DNA from: Candidatus Dojkabacteria bacterium
Lineage (GTDB): Bacteria > Patescibacteriota > Dojkabacteria > JAFGLO01
Assembly: GCA_016927995.1 (NCBI GenBank)
Contig: JAFGLO010000004.1
Coordinates: forward strand, 64,955-128,954
Direction of reading: 5' to 3'
DNA length: 64,000 bases
The notes under the pieces are model-generated. The model did no database searches and had not been told where the DNA came from. It saw only the letters and a list, made by a program, of their open reading frames with translations. The position numbers were made by a program, and so were the translations under genes. This document shows, one piece after another, positions 934-54,860 of the stretch. Within the stretch, counting starts at the first letter, position 1. The number at the start of each line of letters is the position of its first letter.

Positions 934-2712
934 ATGATTACCGATACACTAAAGTCAAAAATCCAGGAAGTCGTTAAGTCACTCTTCAAGGTAGATACTG
1001 AAATAGTTGTTGATATTCCCAATGATTCATCCAAAGGCGATTACTTTTCAAATGTGGCAATGCAGCTTGCCGGCAGACTTAAAAAAAATCCGGTAGAAAT
1101 CGCACAGGAAATCGTTAAGACACTTAACGTTTCAGATATCGCAGAGGCAACCGTAGCCAGTCCCGGATATATAAATTTTAAACTACTGACTTCTGTATAT
1201 CAAACAAAGTTTTGCGAAATGGTCGATGCCGCAAATAAAGGAAAACCGCTAGCTACAAACAGTCTTTGGAATGGCAAAAAAGTAATGATAGAGTTTGCAC
1301 ATCCTAATCCGTTTAAATCGTTTCATATTGGACACCTGCGAAATATCTGCCTTGGTGAATCACTTGTTCGCCTGTTCGAAGCATCAGGTGCAAAGGTAAT
1401 AAGAACAAATTACCAGGGTGATGTAGGCTTGCATATTGCAAAATGTTTATGGGCATTTTTAAAAACCGATCCTAAAGATTATCCGATGGCTCCACGTGAG
1501 AAAGCTACATTTTTAGGGAAATTGTATGCACAAGGTGCTACCGCATATAAAGATAACGAAAGCGCAAAATCAGAAATAAGAGAAATTAATAAGCAAATAT
1601 ATTCAGGTGAAAATCCCAAAATCACGAAACTTTGGCAACTTGGGAAAACTTGGAGTTTGGAGCATTTTCATGAAATATATAAGCGGGTATATTCCAGATT
1701 CGATAGAGAATACATGGAAACAGAAGTTATGAACGATGGACTTATGTATAGTAAACAAGCATTAGAAAAGGGAATTCTTAAAGAGAGTGACGGTGCAGTA
1801 ATTTTTGACGGAAAGCCACATGGGCTTGATACCAGGGTGTTTATAAACAATGAAGGATTACCAACCTACGAAGGTAAAGAACTCGGACTTGCATATAAAG
1901 AATTTACCGATTTTGGGGAATTAGATTTGTGTATTCACAACGTGGCCGTTGAACAGATAAGCTTTTTTAAGGTAACTTTTAAGGTCCAGGAGCTTTTAAA
2001 CCCTAAGCTTTTTAAAGGAAAACAGTATCACAATGCGTATGAATTTGTGGGGCTTAAAAAAGGAAAAATGAGTTCACGAGAGGGCAAAGTTGTTTTAGCA
2101 ATGGACATTTTGGATGAAGCTGTTTCTCGAATTAATGCTTTACCAACAGAAACTGCAAAAGACAATTCGGCTGAAGATTCGGATAATACCGAAATTTCGG
2201 AAACGGTGGGTGTCGGTGCCGTAAAATATTCATTCTTAAAGGTTAGCCCATTTAAATACATGGCGTTTGACATGGACGAGTGTGTAAGTCTTGAAGGAAA
2301 TTCGGGTCCATATTTGCAGTATAGTTATGTAAGGGCAAGGGCCGTAGGCAGTAGGGACATGTCTGTGACTTGTCCCGCAGATAGGGACATGTCTGTGACT
2401 TGTCCCACAGATGGGGAAATGTCACAGACTTGTCCTGCTTGTTCGACAAAAGAGGAACAGGAATTAATCAAGTCAATAACCAAATTTTCGGGCGTTGTGG
2501 AAGATGCCACAAAAGCCTATAGCCCTAATTATCTTGCCGATTACTTATACAAGCTTGCGCAAAGTTTTAGTAGATTTTATGAAAATGTTCCGGTACTTAA
2601 AGAGCCTGATACCCAAAAGAAAGCTGCGAGATTAACGCTTGTCTCAATGTTTGCTCGTGTAATGAAGGAAGGGCTTTATCTTTTAGGAATAGAGATAGTA
2701 GAAAAAATGTAA
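934..2712 (+). CDS. argS: Arginine--tRNA ligase with an in-frame repeat-derived insertion
   Basis: It has the class I HIGH motif (SFHIGHLRN), a KMSKS-like motif (KMSSREG), and the ArgRS N-terminal and anticodon-binding regions. An extended TGnTAcAAT -10 element lies at about 895-904. Confidence 0.95.
   Translation: MITDTLKSKIQEVVKSLFKVDTEIVVDIPNDSSKGDYFSNVAMQLAGRLKKNPVEIAQEIVKTLNVSDIAEATVASPGYINFKLLTSVYQTKFCEMVDAANKGKPLATNSLWNGKKVMIEFAHPNPFKSFHIGHLRNICLGESLVRLFEASGAKVIRTNYQGDVGLHIAKCLWAFLKTDPKDYPMAPREKATFLGKLYAQGATAYKDNESAKSEIREINKQIYSGENPKITKLWQLGKTWSLEHFHEIYKRVYSRFDREYMETEVMNDGLMYSKQALEKGILKESDGAVIFDGKPHGLDTRVFINNEGLPTYEGKELGLAYKEFTDFGELDLCIHNVAVEQISFFKVTFKVQELLNPKLFKGKQYHNAYEFVGLKKGKMSSREGKVVLAMDILDEAVSRINALPTETAKDNSAEDSDNTEISETVGVGAVKYSFLKVSPFKYMAFDMDECVSLEGNSGPYLQYSYVRARAVGSRDMSVTCPADRDMSVTCPTDGEMSQTCPACSTKEEQELIKSITKFSGVVEDATKAYSPNYLADYLYKLAQSFSRFYENVPVLKEPDTQKKAARLTLVSMFARVMKEGLYLLGIEIVEKM
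2353..2442 (+). repeat. 3 x 30-bp in-frame tandem repeat inside argS; each unit is a REP-like palindrome
   Basis: Units are 2353-2382, 2383-2412 and a degenerate copy at 2413-2442. The unit AGGGACATGTCTGTGACTTGTCCC[GA]CAGAT encodes RDMSVTCPAD / RDMSVTCPTD / GEMSQTCPAC. Each unit has GGGACA...TGTCCC inverted arms, and GTAGGGACA-GTCT matches the REP-like repeat at 42752 and 51723. Confidence 0.8.
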
Positions 2713-18432: not shown

Positions 18433-18439
18433 ATAGATA

Positions 18440-18601
18440 AAACACTCAAATCGGGGCGATGCCCACTTCGGGGTATCCTCCCCGCTTTGGTATTTTGACT
18501 GCACTTTGTTTGTCAAAACACTCAAATCGGGGCGATGCCCGTAAAGGGTATCACCCCCGCTATCGCATTTTGTCTGCACTTTGTTTGTCAAAACACTCAA
18601 A
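18440..18601. repeat. About 76-bp tandem repeat, 2.2 copies, each carrying a decayed tRNA-Pro 3'-end copy (att-like)
   Basis: Units start at about 18440, 18516 and 18590. Each begins AAACACTCAAATCGGGGCGATGCCC. The third unit runs into the genuine tRNA 3' end (ATCGGGGCGACACG...). Confidence 0.7.
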
Positions 18602-18675
18602 TCGGGGCGACACGACTTGAACGTGCGACCTCATGACCCCCAGCCATGCGTTCTAGCCAACTGAACTACGCCCCG
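18602..18675 (-). tRNA. tRNA-Pro (anticodon GGG)
   Basis: Manual cloverleaf fold: acceptor CGGGGCG/CGCCCCG with A73; D stem GTTC/GAAC; anticodon stem CATGG/TCATG with loop CTGGGGG; T stem GCACG/CGTGT with loop TTCAAGT. No encoded CCA. Confidence 0.85.
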
Positions 18676-23976: not shown

Positions 23977-24981
23977 ATGGCTAAACGGATTGGAATTGAC
24001 CTTGGAACCGCAAACTCCGTTGTATATGTGTCCGATAAAGGAATAATTTTGTGTGAACCTACGGTTGTTGCTTTAACAAAAGACGACTTAATGGTTATTG
24101 CCGTTGGGCAGGAAGCCAAAGAGATGCTTGGGAAAACACCTGATTCCATAATCGCTCGAAGACCCTTAAGAAATGGAGTAATTGCTAATGCTCGAATAAC
24201 CGAAGCAATTCTTAAGTATTTTATTGGAAAAGTAATGGGACCAATAAGACTGTTTAAGCCCGAAGTTATGATTTCGGTACCTGTGGGAATAACTTCCGTT
24301 GAAAAACGCGCGGTTGTAAAGGCGGCAATTAGTGCCGGAGCCAAAAATGTTGAACTTATACCGGAACCGCTTGCAGCGGCCATAGGTGCCAAACTTCCAA
24401 TTCATACATCAACCGGAAACTTAATCGTAAATATAGGTGGTGGAACTTCTGAAATCGCTGTGATTTCTCTCAATGGAATTGTAGCATTTAACTCTGCACG
24501 TGTTGCAGGTGATGCACTAAATGATGGAATTGCAGTGTATGTTAGAAAGAAACATGGATTAGTGATAGGTGAGCAAATGTCGGAACGAATAAAAATTGAA
24601 ATAGGAAGTGCACTGCCTATGGAAAAACCCCTTGAAATGGAGATTAGAGGTCGTGATAACTCGACAGGTATGCCAAGATCAACAACAATTGATTCAAATC
24701 AAACGGTCGATGCCATGAAACCTCGACTTAATCAGATAATTTTGGCTGTAAAGTCGGTACTTGAACGTACTCCTCCTGAGCTTACATCCGATATTATTGA
24801 TCGCGGGCTTATTTTAAGTGGTGGTACTGCCATGCTTCGAAATATAGATATGCTTTTTACTAAAGCACTTGGTGTGCCTAGTCATATTGCCGATGATCCT
24901 ATTTATTGTGTGGCCCGTGGTATCGGTGAAGCCCTTAAACATATTGATATTTTAAGAAAAAGCATTGAAGCAAACATGTAG
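23977..24981 (+). CDS. mreB: Rod shape-determining actin homologue MreB
   Basis: IGIDLGTANS phosphate-1, the NIGGGTS adenosine motif and LSGGTAMLR phosphate-2 motif. It is 334 aa. Confidence 0.95.
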   Translation: MAKRIGIDLGTANSVVYVSDKGIILCEPTVVALTKDDLMVIAVGQEAKEMLGKTPDSIIARRPLRNGVIANARITEAILKYFIGKVMGPIRLFKPEVMISVPVGITSVEKRAVVKAAISAGAKNVELIPEPLAAAIGAKLPIHTSTGNLIVNIGGGTSEIAVISLNGIVAFNSARVAGDALNDGIAVYVRKKHGLVIGEQMSERIKIEIGSALPMEKPLEMEIRGRDNSTGMPRSTTIDSNQTVDAMKPRLNQIILAVKSVLERTPPELTSDIIDRGLILSGGTAMLRNIDMLFTKALGVPSHIADDPIYCVARGIGEALKHIDILRKSIEANM

Positions 24982-25014
24982 GGATATGTTTGTAATCTGT
25001 CCCTACAAATGTGT

Positions 25015-25908
25015 TTAAGCATCAGTCGTTGCCCAATCCAAAAGCTTTTTCATTTCGGACTTTGATCCCTCGGGTGTTTTTAATGCGGGACTTTCCAGAA
25101 TCATTGGGATTTCTCTTAATTTCGGATGGTTTATTATTGCTTTTATGCCTTCTTTTCCTATTAACCCTTCGCCTAAATCGGCGTGTCGATCTTTGTTTGA
25201 CCCACACTCTGTAAGAGAGTCGTTTAAGTGAATGCAGGTAACATTTGAAAGCCCCAGTGTTGAGTCTATATCTTTAATAACCCCTTCGAGGTTATTTTTC
25301 CAATCATAACCCGAGGCAAATGAATGCTGAGTATCAACAACAAATCCAATCCGGTCCGGCTGTGCAGCTTTGCGCCTCATTTCAGAAATCTCGGTAAATT
25401 TATCGCCAAGGATGTTTCCCGAACCTGCAGAATCTTCCAATAAAAGTTTGCCTTTAGGAGCATTATCTAAAATCCAATCGAGTCCATAAATAACACGACC
25501 CATTGATGCCTTTTCGGAAAGATCCTGCACTGATCCGGGGTGAAAACAAATTCCCAAGACTTCGATGTCTGAATCAAGCCTGTATAAATAATCAGAAAGG
25601 GACGCAGCAAAATTTAAGTAGGCTACAAGGGACATTTTGCTTAGGTGGAACATTTGTTTGTCGCCACGGGCGAGGTTGATAAGGTAGATCCCATGAGCAA
25701 CAATCCTTTTTATTGAACTTTTTGCCAGGGCTTCGGCAAAGGCTTTTATTTGAGATTCATCAATAGGTTTTGTCGTCCAGCGTTGAGGAGCCGTGGGGTG
25801 TATTTGGATGCTGTTTGCCGAAATTGCCTCTGCATTTTTTACGGCGTTTATTAGACCTCCGGCGACTGATACATGTGATCCAAGGTAGCGCATTATGGTC
25901 TTTGTCAA
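25015..25908 (-). CDS. nfo: Endonuclease IV (AP endonuclease family 2)
   Basis: The start MRYLGSHVSVAGGL, the HGIYLINLA segment and the HLNDS metal-binding motifs. It is 297 aa. Confidence 0.88.
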   Translation of the reverse strand: MTKTIMRYLGSHVSVAGGLINAVKNAEAISANSIQIHPTAPQRWTTKPIDESQIKAFAEALAKSSIKRIVAHGIYLINLARGDKQMFHLSKMSLVAYLNFAASLSDYLYRLDSDIEVLGICFHPGSVQDLSEKASMGRVIYGLDWILDNAPKGKLLLEDSAGSGNILGDKFTEISEMRRKAAQPDRIGFVVDTQHSFASGYDWKNNLEGVIKDIDSTLGLSNVTCIHLNDSLTECGSNKDRHADLGEGLIGKEGIKAIINHPKLREIPMILESPALKTPEGSKSEMKKLLDWATTDA

Positions 25909-33454: not shown

Positions 33455-33700
33455 CTTATAATCCATTATACAGTGAAATAGTGAAGCAGTGAAACAGTAA
33501 AGTAATACTCTGGAAGCCCGATATGTGAGCAGAGATTCGCCTTAACAAGAAAGCAAAAGAGATAAAGGGTTCACTTCGAACATAGGAATCGACGGAAGCT
33601 TAAGCAGTGAAGTAGTGAAACAGTGAAGTATTCCTCTCCGGAAGATACCTATGAGAGAAGTGCCAGGCTTTGACAACAGATTAAATAAAAAATATACTAT
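33455..33700. repeat. Modular intergenic repeat element (8-bp periodic CAGTGAAG arrays plus a conserved core)
   Basis: It contains cagtgaaa-tagtgaag-cagtgaaa-cagtaaag, the core GGTTCACTTCGAACATAGGAATCGACGGAAGCTTAAGCAGTGAAG, and CTCCGGAAGATACCTATGAGAGAAGTG. Related modules occur at 45630-45730, 46440-46795, 53930-54090 and 54781-54860. Confidence 0.8.
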
Positions 33701-36872: not shown

Positions 36873-36942
36873 GATTTTGTGTTGTTTGTCGGGTATGAGA
36901 CTGTAGGGGCGGTTTTTAAACCCGTCCCTACGGTCTTTGTTT

Positions 36943-41808: not shown

Positions 41809-42729
41809 ATGTCAGCGCAAACTTATGATCTTATAATAATAGGCGCGGGTCCGGCGGGATATACCGCATCGGTGTATTCATCCCGCTATCGAATTAGTAA
41901 TGTAGTAATAGGCTCTATTCCCGGCGGGCTTGCAACAGAAGCTCACAATGTGTGCAATTTCCCAACAGAAAAAAGCATATCAGGAATTGGGCTTATGCAA
42001 AAAATGAAAGAGGTTGTGGAGAATAATGCAGCTGAGATTGTGATTGATGAAGTTATTTCAATAGAAAAAGAGACCGAGTGCTTTGTTGTAAAAACAGGTT
42101 TGGGAAAAGAATATACTTCAAAGGCAGTGCTAATTGCTACTGGAACATATCATAAAAAACTTGGTATTAAGGGCGAGCTAAGTCTTGTGGGAAAAGGCGT
42201 TAGCTACTGTGCCACCTGTGATGGTCCATTTTACAAAGATAAAATTGTAGGAGTAATTGGTGGAGCCAACGCAGCAAACATGGCAAGTTTGTATTTGTCC
42301 GGAGTTGCTAAGAAAGTCTATCAGTTTGTGCGAAGCACCCAAAAGGGTGATCAGGTTTTAATCGATTCCATAAATAAAAAAGAAAATATTGAAGTGCTAT
42401 TAAAAACCGAGGTTGAAGTTGTCTTGGGAGAAGATAAAGTTACAGGTGTTAGGCTTGCGTCACCTCATGATGGGCAGAGCGAAATTCTGCTAGACGGTAT
42501 ATTTATCGAGGTTGGAACCACACCTGCTACAGCATTTACTCAAGGGCTAGGGCTTAGTGTTGATTTGGATGGATATATTGTAGTCAAACCTGATCAGGCA
42601 ACCAATGTGGATGGAATTTGGGCTGCCGGCGATATAACTACAAATTCAAATAAGTATCATCAAATCATCACGGCTTGTAGCGAAGGCGCTATTGCCGCGA
42701 GTAGCATTGCCCAATGGATTCGTAAATGA
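41809..42729 (+). CDS. trxB: Thioredoxin-disulfide reductase
   Basis: The FAD-binding segment YDLIIIGAGPAGYTA, the redox-active CATCDG, and the NAD(P)-binding segment GGANAA. It is 306 aa. Confidence 0.9.
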   Translation: MSAQTYDLIIIGAGPAGYTASVYSSRYRISNVVIGSIPGGLATEAHNVCNFPTEKSISGIGLMQKMKEVVENNAAEIVIDEVISIEKETECFVVKTGLGKEYTSKAVLIATGTYHKKLGIKGELSLVGKGVSYCATCDGPFYKDKIVGVIGGANAANMASLYLSGVAKKVYQFVRSTQKGDQVLIDSINKKENIEVLLKTEVEVVLGEDKVTGVRLASPHDGQSEILLDGIFIEVGTTPATAFTQGLGLSVDLDGYIVVKPDQATNVDGIWAAGDITTNSNKYHQIITACSEGAIAASSIAQWIRK

Positions 42730-42751: not shown

Positions 42752-43338
42752 GTAGGGACAGGTCTAGACCGGCAGGGGGTCCAGAGAGTGCTTACCAATA
42801 TGTCCTTTGTGCTTTTGCACGTTAAAGTATATGTAATTACGAACACGTTGTAGATCTCTTTCATTCCGAATAATATGGTCGTAAAAAGATCTTTGCCATT
42901 CGAATCTGCCGGGAAACCTCTTGTTTATCCTCCATGATGAGTTCGATTTAAATCCTCTCATGATTTCAGACAAGTTTTTTTCTGGTTCAATCAGGTGAAT
43001 TATCCCATGCAAATGGTCTGGCATTACAATGAAGGCATCCAAATCTATTCCGGAATAATGAACAGGTAAGTCATGCCAACAACCCAATATGATTGCGCCT
43101 AAGTCACTTAAGACAAACATATTTCTCTTAATCTTGCCTAGGATCTGGGGCCTTGTCTTTACTACCGTTGTAATAAAGTAAAATCCTGGTGTTTTGTAGT
43201 CGTATCCTTTAAGCCGTTGTCTTTTCCTTCCTTTTTCTTCCATACTTAACATTAACACACCCGCACCCCCATATGGAAGAAACCAAGTTGGCATAATGTG
43301 AATTTAATACCCCTGTCGGTCTAGACCTGTCCCTACTG
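42752..43338. mobile_element. RAYT/IS200-like unit: a HuH Y1 transposase gene flanked by inverted 27-bp REP-like repeats
   Basis: Left repeat GTAGGGACAGGTCTAGACCGGCAGGGGG at 42752-42779. Right repeat, as reverse complement, GTAGGGACAGGTCTAGACCGACAGGGGT at 43311-43338. This is a 27/28 match. Each contains the palindrome GGTCTAGACC. Confidence 0.75.
42764..43294 (-). CDS. tnpA: IS200/IS605-family or REP-associated tyrosine transposase (HuH, Y1)
   Basis: HuH motif DHLHGIIHL, the N-terminal YDYKTPGFYFITT segment, and the C-terminal WQRSFYDHIIR...YIYFNVQKH segment with a candidate catalytic Tyr. It is 176 aa. Confidence 0.78.
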   Translation of the reverse strand: MPTWFLPYGGAGVLMLSMEEKGRKRQRLKGYDYKTPGFYFITTVVKTRPQILGKIKRNMFVLSDLGAIILGCWHDLPVHYSGIDLDAFIVMPDHLHGIIHLIEPEKNLSEIMRGFKSNSSWRINKRFPGRFEWQRSFYDHIIRNERDLQRVRNYIYFNVQKHKGHIGKHSLDPLPV

Positions 43339-46439: not shown

Positions 46440-46795
46440 GCTATAGTCTCTTGCTTGCTAGTCTATTCACTATTTCACTGCTTAAGTTTCCCTCGATTCC
46501 TATGTTCATCGGAAGCCATTTGCTTATTTTGCCTTTTTGCTAAAGCGATTTCTTCTTCTCACACTAGCTTTTCGGTGATTACTTGACTGTTTTACTACTT
46601 CACTACTTCACTGTTTCACTACGTTACTGCTTCACTGCTTAAGCTTCCGTTGATTCCTATGTTCGAAGTGAACCCTTTATCTGTTTTGCCTTTGTGTTAA
46701 AGCTTGCCACTTCTCTCATAGGTATCTTCCGGAGTGTATTACTTCACTGTTTCACTACTTTACTGTTTAAGGTATACTAAAGTAAGACTTAGTTT
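46440..46795. repeat. Largest cluster of the modular intergenic repeat family (two back-to-back modules)
   Basis: On the opposite strand it reads GGTTCACTTCGAACATAGGAATCAACGGAAGCTTAAGCAGTGAAG and CTCCGGAAGATACCTATGAGAGAAGTGGCAAGC. These are flanked by 8-bp periodic arrays (cttcacta-cttcactg-tttcacta-cgttactg-cttcactg). Confidence 0.8.
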
Positions 46796-50270: not shown

Positions 50271-51215
50271 TTATGTAGATTTTTCTATTACAAAAAGCTT
50301 GGCGCTTCTAGAGCGTTTATTTTCCAATACTTCTTCTTCTTCTGGGGTAAGAGGGACTGGGGTAAGAAGCGAAAGGCTGTCGAAGTTTTCATTAATGAAA
50401 CTTTCAACAACACCGGCTTCGAGTGAGTGGTATGCAAGAATGACTAGTCGTCCCTTGTGAGAAAGTAAGGAAAATGCCTCCGGAAGCGCTGCTTTTAGGT
50501 TGTTAATTTCGTCGTTGACGGCAATTCTTAATGCCTGAAAAACCCGTCTTGCCGGGTGTTTTCTTCCTCTGTCGTAGTTTTCCGGCACTCCCTTGTAGAT
50601 TGCCTTTACAAGCTCGTGCGTGGTTGTAAGCTCTTCTGCTTTTCTGGCTTTTATTATTTCTCTGGCAATTGATTTGCTATAACGTTCTTGTCCGTATACT
50701 GTAAAGAGTTTGGTTAGTTCGGACTCTGATAGAGCATGTAAAAGATCAAAGGCGTTTACTAATAGGTCTTTATCCATTCGCATATCGAGCTTGCTGCTTC
50801 CGTAAAAGCTAAAGCCACGATTTTTCTGGGCGAGCTGTCTACTACTAAGTCCAAGATCAAATAAGACTCCGTTTATAGATTCAATGTTGTGTTTATTTAA
50901 AATCTTTTTCATGGATTTAAAGTTGGCCTTTTCAATTATCCAGTTGTCAAGTTTGGCTAATGGGTTATTTGTTTTTACGAACTCTATACTTTCGGTATCG
51001 TGATCTAGGCTTACAAGCTTACCTGAGCCTAGTGCCTTAAGGATTTCAGTGCTATGTCCGCCATCACCTAATGTTGCATCAACGTAGTTCCCTTCAGGAA
51101 CAATATTAAGGTACTCAATAACTTTCTCTAAAAGTACCGGTTTATGTACTGGTGCCTTATTCATTTCTGTTTTGGTTTGTAAGTTTTTGTGCAATTTCTT
51201 CACCATGTGTGTCAA
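50271..51215 (-). CDS. rsmH: 16S rRNA m4C1402 methyltransferase RsmH (MraW)
   Basis: HKPVLLEKVIEYL and DATLGDGGHS motifs. It is 314 aa. Confidence 0.95.
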   Translation of the reverse strand: MTHMVKKLHKNLQTKTEMNKAPVHKPVLLEKVIEYLNIVPEGNYVDATLGDGGHSTEILKALGSGKLVSLDHDTESIEFVKTNNPLAKLDNWIIEKANFKSMKKILNKHNIESINGVLFDLGLSSRQLAQKNRGFSFYGSSKLDMRMDKDLLVNAFDLLHALSESELTKLFTVYGQERYSKSIAREIIKARKAEELTTTHELVKAIYKGVPENYDRGRKHPARRVFQALRIAVNDEINNLKAALPEAFSLLSHKGRLVILAYHSLEAGVVESFINENFDSLSLLTPVPLTPEEEEVLENKRSRSAKLFVIEKST

Positions 51216-51594
51216 GATAAGAAAGTCGTTTCTGCCAGCTTTCCGTGCTCCAGACTTCTATCCAGTTAAGAAGTCCGACAAAGACTACCTCTTTTTGTAT
51301 TTGTGCATATTTAAAGAGATTGTCCGGGATCACAAATCGACCCTGAGTATCGGGTAATATTTCTTTTGCGCCACCAACCAAGATTCTGGCAGTATCCCTG
51401 ACAAAATTATTAATTATTGAGCCGTTTGTGATTTCGCTTGTTATCTTTTCAAAGCGATCCTTGTTAACGAGCACTAAAGAATTTTCGTACCCACGAGTTA
51501 TATATAACTTACCTTTTAGCTCTTTTCGTAGATCATACGGAATTGCTATGCGTTTTTTTTCTCCAACCTTTTGCATGAATTCACCTATTAGCAT
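51157..51594 (-). CDS. mraZ: Transcriptional regulator MraZ
   Basis: Duplicated MraZ/SpoVT-AbrB-like halves (DxxxR) at 145 aa. It is the first gene of the dcw cluster. Confidence 0.9.
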   Translation of the reverse strand: MLIGEFMQKVGEKKRIAIPYDLRKELKGKLYITRGYENSLVLVNKDRFEKITSEITNGSIINNFVRDTARILVGGAKEILPDTQGRFVIPDNLFKYAQIQKEVVFVGLLNWIEVWSTESWQKRLSYLDTHGEEIAQKLTNQNRNE

Positions 51595-51722: not shown

Positions 51723-51946
51723 GTAGGGACAGGTCTAGACCCGCACCTCCAGTTCGGGAAATTGCCAGTGGATAACCATTCTAAGAGACCGATCTTTGCA
51801 TACACCTACACGCATTGGAAAATATATTGACCAGCTCGTTATTTGTTAGCAGGGGTGTGGGTGTAAGACCGTCACGGGGTTATTAGAGTCATGATCTTTT
51901 CGTTATTTGAATGTTGCGGCATGTCGGTCTAGACCTGTCCCTACTA
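51723..51946. repeat. REPIN-like element: two inverted copies of the REP-like repeat with no transposase
   Basis: GTAGGGACAGGTCTAGACCCGCACC lies at 51723-51747. Its inverted partner GTCGGTCTAGACCTGTCCCTAC lies at 51923-51946. They enclose about 175 bp of non-coding DNA. Confidence 0.7.
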
Positions 51947-51950
51947 CGAT

Positions 51951-52017
51951 ATTTATCGATACTTACCGATATTTACCGGTATTTACCGGTATTTATCGAT
52001 ACTTACCGATACTTACA
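51951..52017. repeat. Tandem array of about 6.7 x 10-bp palindromic repeats upstream of the ECF sigma gene
   Basis: ATTTATCGAT ACTTACCGAT ATTTACCGGT ATTTACCGGT ATTTATCGAT ACTTACCGAT ACTTACAGTG. Each unit holds an ACCGGT or ATCGAT palindrome. The array ends 3 nt before the TATAAT (52021-52026) of the GTG-start sigma gene. Confidence 0.75.
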
Positions 52018-52061: not shown

Positions 52062-52625
52062 GTGAACGAATCAAAGTTGGTACAAACAGCACAAAACGGA
52101 GATAGCACCGCAATGCAGGCCTTATACGAAGAAAGCGTTAGTTGTATATACCGCTTTGTATACTCGTTCTCATTAGGAAAAGAAGTTACCGATGATATTG
52201 TCGCAGAAAGCTTTACAAAAGCGTTTGAAAAACTTAAACAATTTAGGGGAAAAAGCTCTTTTAAAACATGGGTGTATAAAATTGCAAGAAATGAAGTATA
52301 CACATATTTCAACAAAAAAAGAGGGACCATTCCGATGGATGAAGAAAAAATAGAGCAAGTGGCTGATCGCATTGGTAATGATATTTTGCAGAGTCATGAA
52401 AATGATCGACATACCAATAATGACAATAAGAACGAGCGACTTGTAAGGAAAATACTAAATCAGTTGCCTGCCAGGCAGGCAGAAGTTCTAAGATTGCGGT
52501 TTATTTTGGGGTATACCGTAAAAGAGTGTGCACTGGAGTTAAAAATTTCCGAAGGCAATGTAAAGGTGATTCAGAATAGGGCATTGGGAAAAGCTAATAA
52601 GTTGGTGAATAAAGAAAATGGATAA
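52062..52625 (+). CDS. ECF-type RNA polymerase sigma factor (sigma-70 regions 2 and 4)
   Basis: The region 2 motifs YRFVYSF...D (2.1) and WVYKIARN (2.4), and the region 4 helix-turn-helix segment VLRLRFILGYTVKECALELKISEGNVK. Confidence 0.85.
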   Translation: MNESKLVQTAQNGDSTAMQALYEESVSCIYRFVYSFSLGKEVTDDIVAESFTKAFEKLKQFRGKSSFKTWVYKIARNEVYTYFNKKRGTIPMDEEKIEQVADRIGNDILQSHENDRHTNNDNKNERLVRKILNQLPARQAEVLRLRFILGYTVKECALELKISEGNVKVIQNRALGKANKLVNKENG

Positions 52626-53929: not shown

Positions 53930-54090
53930 AGATTGTCAAATGGTAGTAAGTAGTAGGGATATGTCAATGACTTGTCCAGTAGTAAAGTAATACTCCGGAA
54001 CATAGGAATCAACGGAAGCTTGCGCAGTAAAGCAGTGAAGTAATCCTCTCCGGAACATAGGAATCGATGGAGTATTAAATCGTAAAAAAG
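53930..54090. repeat. Modular intergenic repeat (two core copies)
   Basis: CTCCGGAACATAGGAATCAACGGAAGCTTGCGCAGTAAAGCAGTGAAGTAATCCTCTCCGGAACATAGGAATCGATGGAG. Confidence 0.75.
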
Positions 54091-54101
54091 TGAGCAAGTG
54101 C

Positions 54102-54780: not shown

Positions 54781-54860
54781 GTATACAGTAATCAGTGGAA
54801 TAGTGAAATAGTGAAGCAGGAGAGATAGGTCTATGATTTGTTTATAAGTAGTAAGCAGTA
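54781..54860. repeat. Modular intergenic repeat (8-bp CAGTGGAA/TAGTGAAA array)
   Basis: cagtggaa-tagtgaaa-tagtgaag-caggagag in the divergent promoter region. Confidence 0.6.

Follow-up and report, generated by a model that had tools for sequence, protein, structure and literature searches.

A probable RAYT-REP system in Candidatus Dojkabacteria, with the gene set between the halves of a GTAG-footed palindrome

The window, meaning the whole 64-kb stretch of Candidatus Dojkabacteria DNA analyzed here, contains one RAYT-like gene, which lies between two inverted arms in the following arrangement:

42752-42778, plus strand: left arm of the inverted repeat, with the core 42752-42770 = GTAGGGACAGGTCTAGACC (palindrome positions 1-19)
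42764-43294, minus strand: RAYT/TnpAREP-like Y1 HUH endonuclease gene, a 176-aa ORF with a probable start at Met18 (43243), giving 159 aa
43310-43336, plus strand: right arm of the inverted repeat, with the core 43318-43336 = GGTCTAGACCTGTCCCTAC (palindrome positions 10-28)

The ORF carries the motifs MPDHLHGIIH, in which H94 and H96 form the HUH pair, WQRSFYDHIIRN, a WQ motif at 133-134, and NYIYFNV with Tyr154, in agreement with the HuH motif and catalytic tyrosine that the initial annotation had read in the 176-aa frame; alignment with homologues probably places the true start at Met18. The reading frame is intact, and the invariant residues of the family are all present (M74, P75, H79, K99, W116, R126, Y137, and N141, in the numbering of alignment A2). 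Scoring against Y1_Tnp and RAYT profiles had been suggested along with that annotation, and both cutoffs were reached: Pfam Y1_Tnp (PF01797) gives 43.8 bits against a cutoff of 23 (3.3e-11), and NCBIfam REP_Tyr_transpos (NF047646) gives 80.7 bits against 80, reached just barely. The NCBIfam model transpos_IS200 (NF033573) stays at 31.1 bits, below its cutoff of 55.

By sequence, the top PDB match is 4ER8, the E. coli TnpAREP (about 23% protein identity), with the HUH, WQ, and Y motifs in register and H94-L-H96 and Y154 aligned with the HUH motif and Y115 of 4ER8. An AlphaFold model (pLDDT 88, pTM 0.81) presents the beta-sheet plus alphaD topology, and its top fold match is also 4ER8 (TM 0.65, rmsd 2.9 Å), while the TnpA chains of IS608, ISDra2, and IS200 superpose at rmsd 6-15 Å, such that the predicted fold is nearer to the monomeric TnpAREP than to the domain-swapped IS200-type dimers. 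Neither the profile search nor the model revealed an extra domain in the 159-176-aa protein. Sequence and model together support a Y1 HUH enzyme of the RAYT/TnpAREP type, and the preference for a RAYT over a canonical IS200 TnpA was upheld by the low IS200 score and by 4ER8 being the best match in both sequence and fold. The alternative named at the outset, a canonical IS200 TnpA with the arms belonging to a larger IS, did not appear, as the IS200 score lies below its cutoff and no tnpB, subterminal hairpins, or larger IS were found around the gene.

The Y motif, Y154-I-Y-F-N158-V159, keeps the Asn of the class-2 signature Y---NP (Table 1 of PMC6006769) and has Val in place of its Pro, and the HuH motif is DHLH, versus the NH[IFV]H of subclass 2.4. 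As part of the RAYT-REP reading developed below, the protein probably belongs to TnpAY1 class 2, with subclass 2.4 (Bertels Group 4) as its nearest relative.

The arms flanking the gene are 27 nt long, inverted, and complementary at 26 of 27 positions, with GTAG at the ends distal to the gene; the near-identical 27-nt arms of the initial annotation are thereby confirmed, with a match of 26/27 instead of the claimed 27/28. Both contain GGTCTAGACC, and their inner 8 nt are GGCAGGGG on the left, overlapping the final codons of the RAYT ORF, and CCCCTGTC on the right. The 3' end of the ORF lies inside the left arm as the codons P-L-P-V-stop, the stop codon TAG forming the center of GGTCTAGACC. The description of the arms as REP-like sequences did not hold, since they are two halves, overlapping by 10 nt, of a single 28-nt “double-foot” palindrome, GTAGGGACAGGTCTAGACCTGTCCCTAC. 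Folded with 30 nt of inner sequence each, the four arms present in the window do no better than shuffles (z 0.06 to 0.92), which rules them out as individual REP hairpins; the intact 28-mer folds at -12.2 kcal/mol (z -5.9), and the stem forms only from paired arms or from the intact 28-mer.

In the window, this palindrome occurs in a split form that runs through positions 1-19, then a cargo, then positions 10-28, the cargo being the RAYT gene at one site and a 184-nt noncoding stretch at the other. The palindrome has CT dinucleotides at positions 13, 19, and 25, the arms stopping at C19. A “CA” at positions 22-23 is common to all four arms, which fits a shared 23-nt arm better than two independent insertions. 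No target-site duplication was found outside the arms, no promoter or terminator signal in the unit rises above shuffled expectation, and no Rfam family reaches the gathering threshold in or near the units (the whole window has two tRNAs). The 585-nt unit of gene plus arms recurs without a difference in another assembly of the locus, the Logan contig L001, with the same reads possibly behind both. In a database search for close relatives in which to compare the empty site, the closest homologue of the neighboring TrxB-like gene (41809-42729) was 54% identical, so the database offered no genome near enough for the comparison.

A C-terminal tail LDPLPV is also common to a more distant cluster of homologues (P0051, P0052, P0058, and P0062). 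We considered whether the tail is repeat-encoded in these homologues and rejected the idea, their loci being classical REPtrons in which self-folding GTAG REPs adjoin the stop codon.

Further copies and relatives of the palindrome are distributed over the window:

51723-51944, no strand assigned: geneless inverted pair of 19-nt arms (51723-51741 and 51926-51944, 19/19) with a 184-nt interior
24978-25006, plus strand: single “double-foot” palindrome GTAGGGATATGTTTGTAATCTGTCCCTAC, between the convergent ORFs 23977-24981 (plus) and 25015-25908 (minus)
36903-36931, plus strand: single “double-foot” palindrome with another stem, GTAGGGGCGGTTTTTAAACCCGTCCCTAC, in a 70-nt gap between two minus-strand ORFs
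2351-2441, plus strand: three tandem 30-nt related hairpin units (GTAGGGACATGTCTGTGACTTGTCCC...), in frame in the 592-aa ORF 934-2712
53953-53979, plus strand: degenerate related hairpin GTAGGGATATGTCAATGACTTGTCCAG, overlapped by mechanical ORFs only and by no convincing gene

The 19-mer GTAGGGACAGGTCTAGACC occurs four times in the window, at 42752 (+), 43318 (-), 51723 (+), and 51926 (-), and in none of 100 dinucleotide-preserving shuffles. The initial annotation had placed the same repeat elsewhere without the gene, and this is borne out by the second inverted pair, whose arms stand 184 nt apart. That pair is intergenic, with a divergent ORF (51157-51594, minus strand) on one side and a sigma-factor-like ORF (52062-52625, plus strand) on the other, and its arms pair when folded as single-stranded DNA (z -3.7). 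Its interior has no DNA similarity to the RAYT unit beyond 19-23 nt, and similarity at the protein level is limited to palindrome-encoded peptides, so a simple deletion derivative of the gene unit is ruled out. Besides this one exact further pair, the repeats at 2351-2441, 24978, 36903, and 53953 are related but diverged; two palindromes of the form GTAGGG..CCCTAC are observed against 0.02 expected. The stop codon TAG of ORF 23977-24981 falls in the GTAG of its palindrome, and the tandem units encode GSRDMSVTCPADRDMSVTCPTDGEMSQTCPA within an ORF that we read as argS, the arginyl-tRNA synthetase gene.

The gene itself is probably single-copy in the genome, given one copy in the 64 kb and the occurrence of the exact protein on one NCBI contig of 131 kb with unique flanks, plus one Logan contig; it is the sole member of its 90% cluster. 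Assemblies usually break at high-copy IS. These observations bear on an alternative that we regard as unlikely, in which the 585-nt unit, a RAYT-like gene with 19-27-nt terminal inverted repeats (TIRs), would be a transposon and the 222-nt geneless pair its MITE-like nonautonomous derivative, in the “TIRtron/TIRYT” sense of Di Nocera et al. 2013. Such an element would have arms that act as terminal inverted repeats without self-folding, a gene filling the space between them, and identical arms in a second pair without the gene, all as seen here, and TIR-flanked RAYT-like genes with TIR dimers elsewhere have been described (PMC3733652). Yet the gene is found once in 64 kb and its exact protein on a single long contig with unique flanks, the IS200 model score is under cutoff, the arms are bordered by no target-site duplication, and the interior of the doublet is unlike the gene unit in both DNA and protein. 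The published TIRYT motif GGGGWSAS and C-terminal HTH are likewise missing, and the arms are halves of a palindrome dispersed as a repeat in many other genomes.

A second alternative, which we consider very improbable, is that of a decaying relic, with a gene no longer active and repeats surviving as fossils without present activity. The intact ORF with every invariant family residue kept and a protein core modeled with confidence stand against this, as do arms identical at 26/27 and 19/19 positions, which argue for recent formation or ongoing homogenization. Decay would nonetheless agree with the NV of the Y motif against the class-wide NP, with a short C-terminal tail of low model confidence (pLDDT below 50 over the last 10 residues), with the failure to detect a significant promoter-like site, and with the few repeat copies in 64 kb.

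Beyond the window, the 19-mer was found in 75 stretches from 37 assemblies, mostly Patescibacteria, and since these matches were picked by the exact 19-mer, the “conservation” of that half is by construction. Perfect 28-mers are present in 40 of the 75 stretches, and 33 of the 75 fall within open frames of at least 150 codons. The identical 28-nt palindrome appears in assemblies labeled as several phyla, often within RAYT or other genes, and RAYT homologues contain it in frame at 11 loci, in two different reading frames. By core identity, the window RAYT clusters with homologues whose HUH-to-WQ linker holds palindrome-encoded peptides (e.g., VGTGLDLSL and VGNGLKPFPT) and which mix NHxH and DHLH. 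Its own linker, HGIIHLIEPEKNLSEIM, is the shortest of the set at 36 residues, and no palindrome insertion lies between the HUH and Tyr motifs. The protein is 36-43% identical to the RAYTs with an internal palindrome, which share 49-79% identity among themselves, so that enzyme and repeat may not have strictly descended together, and the repeat might be that of a different RAYT encoded at another site.

A scan of the genome collection for other split palindromes yielded intact or slightly mismatched palindromes only. Among JGI metagenome contigs, a search for the arm with any base but T after it gave three matches, none a split pair (two come from one unrelated contig rich in GC, and the third is a mismatched palindrome). 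The split arrangement with a gene in the loop is thus seen only at the Dojkabacteria locus among the collections scanned and may be a one-off rearrangement.

The position of the window RAYT outside the clade of internal-palindrome RAYTs, at 36-43% identity, also enters a third alternative, in which the palindrome family would be owned by another enzyme (e.g., a RAYT of the “...LSLSNIIGAFKTTSS...DRNN” clade at another site of the genome) or would be a hot spot of recombination or insertion, and the RAYT gene and the 184-nt segment would have landed in the middle of two palindromes already present, with a 10-bp duplication of GGTCTAGACC. The structure does look exactly like what an insertion into the palindrome would leave behind if it duplicated a 10-bp target, neither cargo resembles the other, and nested or compound palindromes occur elsewhere, e.g., at L037 and L019. 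Passive cargo is, however, at odds with the arms themselves, whose identity (27 nt) reaches 8 nt into the cargo and whose CA at positions 22-23, present in all four, is unexpected with unrelated cargos. Besides, the window contains no second RAYT, we know of no enzyme that makes 10-bp duplications in such palindromes, and it would be peculiar if a RAYT-type repeat had acquired a RAYT gene as its cargo by chance. We therefore hold this reading to be quite unlikely.

The explanation that we favor, and consider probable, is a RAYT-REP system formed by a probably single-copy, domesticated Y1 HUH endonuclease and a GTAG-footed palindromic repeat in Candidatus Dojkabacteria (CPR/Patescibacteria). 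The E. coli TnpAREP is a monomer that binds both the hairpin foot and the 5' GTAG; in single-stranded DNA, it cuts between the C and T of CT (PMC3479197). By analogy, the arms would pair in single-stranded DNA into a GTAG/CTAC-footed stem like that of the intact palindrome, the loop being formed by the cargo, and since the stem would be the same, we propose that the enzyme sees one substrate in all three forms. Both arms stop exactly at C19 of C19-T20, which is consistent with cleavage between C and T, an idea taken from the E. coli enzyme. Modeled on IS608, “cargo + GGTCTAGACC”, as a segment with identical cleavage sequences on its two sides and a stem beside it, might move into or out of palindrome copies by a peel-and-paste process, whose excision step would regenerate a perfect 28-mer. 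Older copies that have since diverged would account for the shorter related hairpins found in argS and where genes end.

A bolder extension, which we find quite doubtful, would make the 28-mer and the RAYT lineage a two-way nested mobile pair. The palindrome would usually sit inside the RAYT gene, in frame and readable in either of two frames, such that enzyme and substrate spread together between phyla; in Dojkabacteria, the pair would be everted, with the gene in the loop of its own palindrome as an autonomous hairpin transposon. Bounded by identical cleavage sequences, GGTCTAGACC followed by T with the cut between them, the gene would insert into palindrome copies and be excised without a scar. 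If true, this element would bridge IS200-type insertion sequences and domesticated RAYTs as a living intermediate, and it would directly support, in reverse, the published conjecture of an interconversion between double-foot REPs and inverted dimers of REPs.

Among cases in which a domesticated bacterial transposase maintains short repeats as a population, RAYT-REP systems have been studied best, and little work has addressed them outside Proteobacteria. The probable RAYT-REP locus is of a known kind, here in a host group that is new for it and arranged with an unusual geometry. It would extend the host range to the candidate phyla radiation, with genomes of ~1 Mb, where RAYT genes are unexpected given their reported bias to large genomes. 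One palindrome is found in three states, namely intact, split around a noncoding cargo, and split around the gene of the enzyme itself, and the split junctions lie exactly at a CT dinucleotide, the known cleavage specificity of the E. coli enzyme. Should this layout mirror real activity, definite cleavage sites and products can be predicted from it; otherwise, this is one more RAYT locus.

Among known systems, the TnpA of IS200/IS605 elements (IS608 and ISDra2) shares the HUH/Tyr fold and single-strand chemistry, whereas the window RAYT has no Y---Q signature and its locus has neither subterminal imperfect hairpins nor tnpB, with no second near-identical copy in the 64-kb window. Rickettsia palindromic elements (RPEs) measure 100-150 bp, and to our knowledge no transposase is associated with them. 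They and intragenic REPs nevertheless resemble the present repeats, as related hairpins lie in frame in argS here and many long ORFs in other Patescibacteria contain the 28-mer in frame; REPs in tRNA synthetase genes have been reported (PMC3733652).

TIRtrons (Di Nocera, De Gregorio & Rocco 2013, PMC3733652) likewise place a RAYT-like gene between terminal inverted repeats and not hairpin REPs, with one TIR overlapping the 3' end of the gene and TIR dimers elsewhere. Their TIR consensus GGGGWSAS is absent here, in that the inner sequences of the arms, GGCAGGGGGTCC and GACAGGGGTATT, do not match GGGG[AT][CG]A[CG]. Most TIRYTs also belong to subclass 2.1 with a C-terminal HTH domain, unlike the window RAYT, and the TIRs described here are halves of a genuine GTAG REP. 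The geneless pair is like a REPIN (Bertels & Rainey 2011, PMC3116915) in consisting of two inverted RAYT-flanking repeats that form one long single-strand hairpin. In REPINs, however, the spacers are short and each REP is itself palindromic, as opposed to a 184-nt unrelated spacer and arms that are not REP hairpins, and REPINs, which were linked to RAYTs of Groups 2 and 3, number tens to hundreds of copies per population, against a single copy in 64 kb here.

The E. coli REPtron (TnpAREP/YafM with REP/BIME; 4ER8; PMC3479197) also has inverted GTAG-footed flanking repeats, with the feet distal to the gene, and further repeat copies in intergenic DNA. The inverted flanks of the window gene are GT[AG]G-footed as in a REPtron, but they are not self-hairpin repeats. 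Each E. coli REP folds by itself into an imperfect hairpin whose 5' GTAG stays unpaired, and there are hundreds of copies, whereas the present arms cannot fold alone and their GTAG pairs with CTAC.

The nearest relative, TnpAY1 subclass 2.4 (Quentin, Siguier, Chandler & Fichant 2018), corresponds to RAYT Group 4 (Bertels, Gallie & Rainey 2017) and is hosted by Cyanobacteria, Bacteroidetes, Chlorobia, Caldilineae, and other phyla (PMC6006769, PMC5581495), which leaves the statement that these systems are described mainly in Proteobacteria out of date. CPR were absent from the complete genomes sampled for the subclass 2.4 survey, and our literature search for RAYT or REPIN in Patescibacteria/CPR found no relevant paper, which is not proof of absence. 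The subclass is defined by double-foot REPs and in-frame REP insertions inside tnpAREP, the latter, between HuH and Y, being frequent and not obligatory, and its motifs are NH[IFV]H, WQ, and YIxNNP (PMC6006769). The window RAYT differs in having DHLH and YIYFNV, in the palindrome being split around the gene instead of lying within it, and in its host, a small-genome CPR bacterium, when the genes are reported as enriched in large genomes. It shares with subclass 2.4 the Y1 HUH core with its WQ and Y---N motifs, a probably low copy number, a patchy distribution across phyla, and a repeat, putatively cognate here, that is a “double-foot” palindrome (5' GTAG ... CTAC 3').

The gene bracketed by inverted repeats at 42752-43338 belongs, on balance, probably to a RAYT-type system (REP-associated tyrosine transposase, TnpAREP) with a GTAG double-foot repeat.

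Features of the RAYT locus and of the geneless inverted pair
42764-43294 (-), RAYT-type ORF, 176 aa, motifs MPDHLHGIIH, WQRSFYDHIIRN and NYIYFNV
42752-42778, left arm, 27 nt, 26/27 complementary to the right arm
43310-43336, right arm, 27 nt, inverted relative to the left arm
51723-51741 and 51926-51944, doublet (geneless inverted pair), intergenic, between ORF 51157-51594 (-) and the sigma-factor-like ORF 52062-52625 (+)

The RAYT protein matches the Pfam profile Y1_Tnp at 3.3e-11 and scores 80.7 bits with the NCBIfam REP-associated tyrosine transposase model (cutoff 80) vs 31.1 bits with the NCBIfam IS200/IS605 model (cutoff 55), an outcome in the direction anticipated by the initial annotation, which had claimed a RAYT/REPIN-type system here. 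By sequence, its closest solved structure is 4ER8, the E. coli TnpAREP (1.5e-6), with the HUH, WQ and Tyr motifs aligned and Y154 placed at Y115 of 4ER8. An AlphaFold2 model built with 40 homologues (pLDDT 88, pTM 0.81; weak only in the last 10 residues) has the same structure as its top fold match (TM 0.65, rmsd 2.9 Å), the IS608, ISDra2 and IS200 transposases ranking behind it with rmsd of at least 6 Å. The protein keeps every position that is invariant in the family alignment, and the alignment of homologues places the likely translation start at Met18 (43243), which would give 159 aa.

An IS-like element, consisting of the gene and its arms with the doublet as a MITE-like derivative, is disfavoured by several observations. 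The IS200 score lies under the cutoff, and the gene is present in one copy on a long contig, with no second RAYT-like gene in the 64-kb window and the exact protein, named “transposase [Candidatus Dojkabacteria bacterium]” at NCBI, encoded on a contig of 131 kb. Neither tnpB nor a larger element was found around the gene, so that the larger IS with other genes, posed earlier as a refutation, did not materialize. Moreover, the gene unit and the interior of the doublet show no relationship, and the arms are part of a dispersed palindrome family. The 585-nt unit of gene plus arms is identical in the Logan assembly of run SRR13394437.

The 3' codons of the gene (...CCC CTG CCG GTC TAG, P-L-P-V-stop) fall within the left arm, which puts the stop codon at the centre of GGTCTAGACC. 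The 19-nt core of each arm, GTAGGGACAGGTCTAGACC, has four copies in the window vs none in 100 shuffles, two flanking the gene and two forming the doublet. Arms with 30 nt of inner sequence fold like shuffled sequence (z 0.06 to 0.92), which rules them out as separate REP hairpins. Jointly, they make up a perfect 28-nt palindrome, GTAGGGACAGGTCTAGACCTGTCCCTAC, of which one supplies positions 1-19 and the other 10-28; when intact, it folds at -12.2 kcal/mol (z -5.9), and the arms of the doublet pair when it is taken as a single strand (z -3.7). CT dinucleotides occur at palindrome positions 13, 19 and 25, C19 being the exact end of both arms. The CA at positions 22-23 common to all four arms suggests a shared 23-nt arm rather than independent insertions. 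The initial annotation was thus right in what it observed, namely a HuH/Tyr ORF between inverted repeats and the same repeat elsewhere without the gene. It also read the locus correctly in kind, in that a RAYT accompanied by GTAG-footed repeats stands, but the arms are halves of one palindrome and not REP hairpins. Adjoining the right arm of the doublet, just upstream of the sigma-factor-like ORF, lie seven tandem 10-bp units of CGATAYTTAY (51947-52016).

The window also holds a wider family of such palindromes, those of the form GTAGGG...CCCTAC numbering two vs 0.02 expected.

Other repeats of the same family in the window
24978-25006, double-foot palindrome with a different stem, between convergent genes; its GTAG holds the TAG stop of a 334-aa ORF (23977-24981), presumably an mreB-like gene
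36903-36931, double-foot palindrome with a different stem
2351-2441, related GTAG-type hairpins, three tandem 30-nt units, in frame within a 592-aa ORF (934-2712) that we take to be argS, a housekeeping gene; ~31 residues added, GSRDMSVTCPADRDMSVTCPTDGEMSQTCPA
53953-53979, degenerate related copy

The in-frame insertion of the three hairpin units is comparable to that of Rickettsia palindromic elements. In-frame REPs within genes, tRNA synthetase genes included, have already been reported (PMC3733652). Unrelated to the GTAG palindrome is a second intergenic repeat family (33459-33675, 46466-46771, 53998-54094 and 54781-54819), with units of ~120-170 nt, 78-93% identical and in both orientations, which hold 8-mer AGTGAARY runs, the block GAACATAGGAATCRACGGAAGCTTAAGCAGTGAAG and CCGGAAGATACCTATGAGAGAAGTG, and yield no Rfam match at the gathering threshold. 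A ~75-nt tandem repeat (GGGTATC...AAAACACTCAAATCGGGGCGA) occurs three times at 18439-18615, with 91-100% identity.

We scanned GTDB representatives, one genome per species, for the 19-mer and found it in 75 stretches from 37 assemblies, with unrelated flanks. Most hosts are Patescibacteria (Magasanikbacteria, Kuenenbacteria, Doudnabacteria, Parcubacteria, Roizmanbacteria, Paceibacter), the others being labelled Omnitrophota, Lutibacter, Pontibacter, Caldilineaceae and “uncultured Gammaproteobacteria”. The complete 28-mer is perfect in 40/75 stretches, and most others carry the second half with one to few mismatches; since the stretches were picked by the exact 19-mer, conservation is to be read only from the remaining 9 nt and from the breadth of the distribution. 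Of the 75 palindromes, 33 fall in open frames of 150 codons or more. JAMDAY01 (13 stretches) and MNVC01 (8) are rich in copies.

In JAMDAY01, a patescibacterial genome, the 28-mer centres a longer repeat of at least ~90 nt (L011, L021, L028, L032, L035, L036, L047, L050, L052), present in both orientations and flanked by non-palindromic sequence (attgccaagctgg...gac / palindrome / aaggacaggggcggagc...) that includes GACAGGGG, the motif that also extends the window's arms inwards; at L019 of the same genome, one GTAG and one CTAC enclose two different hairpins. In Caldilineaceae (L037, 4150-4230), one partial copy of the 5' half, GTAGGGACAG, and one of the 3' half, CCTGTCCCTAC, surround a full 28-mer. 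The “uncultured Gammaproteobacteria” assemblies (L004, L005, L013, L014, L016, L023, L030, L044, L046, L048, L054, L057, L062, L063, L068, L074) have RAYT genes closely resembling those of Patescibacteria, nearly identical flanks at L014 and L002, and a GC of 33-44% in eight checked loci; their taxonomic labels may be unreliable.

At 11 of the 75 loci, tblastn with the window's protein as query places the palindrome within a RAYT homologue, always in frame and in the segment separating the HUH motif from the helix that follows. Its usual translation is VGTGLDLSL (VGRGLDLSL in the L061 copy, with one mismatch), L046 and L072 using the other open frame, RDRSRPVPT; at L046 (4597-4630), partial 3' halves in tandem are read as RDRFGRDRFG within the RAYT. 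Homologues from a protein search, unbiased as to DNA, carry other palindrome-encoded peptides in the same place (VGNGLKPFPT, VGAEHCSAPT, VGNEQCSFPT, VGAIHELHLR). Such an in-frame palindrome has been described for TnpAY1 subclass 2.4, Bertels' Group 4 (Quentin et al. 2018, PMC6006769), reported from 17 bacterial classes (Bertels et al., PMC5581495), and the initial annotation's premise that these systems are described mainly in Proteobacteria is therefore outdated. The palindrome-carrying RAYTs share 49-79% core identity among themselves and 36-43% with the window's RAYT. The latter's position outside the clade that has this palindrome internally is consistent with passive insertion, in which the gene may have landed in a palindrome belonging to another RAYT.

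Core identity groups the window's RAYT with subclass-2.4-like homologues. At 36 residues, its HUH-to-WQ linker is the shortest among them; it lacks an internal palindrome, and its motifs are DHLH, WQ and YIYFNV vs the published NH[IFV]H, WQ and YIxNNP; assignment to subclass 2.4 is therefore probable, short of proof. Because of the NP-to-NV change, a decaying relic, in which gene and repeats are no longer active, is possible, although the ORF is intact and the arms are near-perfect.

For a RAYT-type gene bracketed by GTAG double-foot halves, with the same bracket also geneless, we infer a working mode from E. coli TnpAREP, a monomer that binds the 5' GTAG together with the base of the REP stem, cuts ssDNA between the C and T of CT and is capable of strand transfer (PMC3479197). 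In ssDNA, the arms would pair into the GTAG/CTAC-footed stem of the intact palindrome and would therefore present the enzyme with an identical substrate for a loop of CTAG, of 184 nt or of the enzyme's own gene. The order 1-19 / cargo / 10-28 could be interpreted as an intact palindrome that has received “cargo + GGTCTAGACC” at C19/T20, after which both cargo boundaries would follow the same ...GGTCTAGACC sequence. IS608 peel-and-paste works by this logic, which would predict scarless excision restoring the 28-mer. An inverted REP dimer has been suggested to become a double-foot REP through deletion of its centre (PMC6006769), and the shared 10-nt GGTCTAGACC could act as the direct repeat in that process. 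This specific cleavage model is much less certain than the identity of the system.

No paper tying RAYTs or REPINs to Patescibacteria was present in the literature searched; the system pairs a RAYT, close to a described subclass, with GTAG-footed repeats in a CPR host group that the papers searched do not discuss. Among the ~20 related loci examined and two large collections scanned, no gene lies between two non-folding palindrome halves, which so far makes this genome the only one with the split geometry. Self-folding GTAG REPs, flanking the gene or internal, occur at the homologue loci L086, L087, L089, L090 and L091. The C-terminal LDPLPV of the window's RAYT is common to a more distant cluster of homologues (P0051, P0052, P0058, P0062), whose loci are classical REPtrons, the gene being flanked on either side by self-folding GTAG REPs. 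Through its geometry, a split double-foot palindrome with the gene as its loop, the system described here departs from the canonical REPtron in one defining feature.
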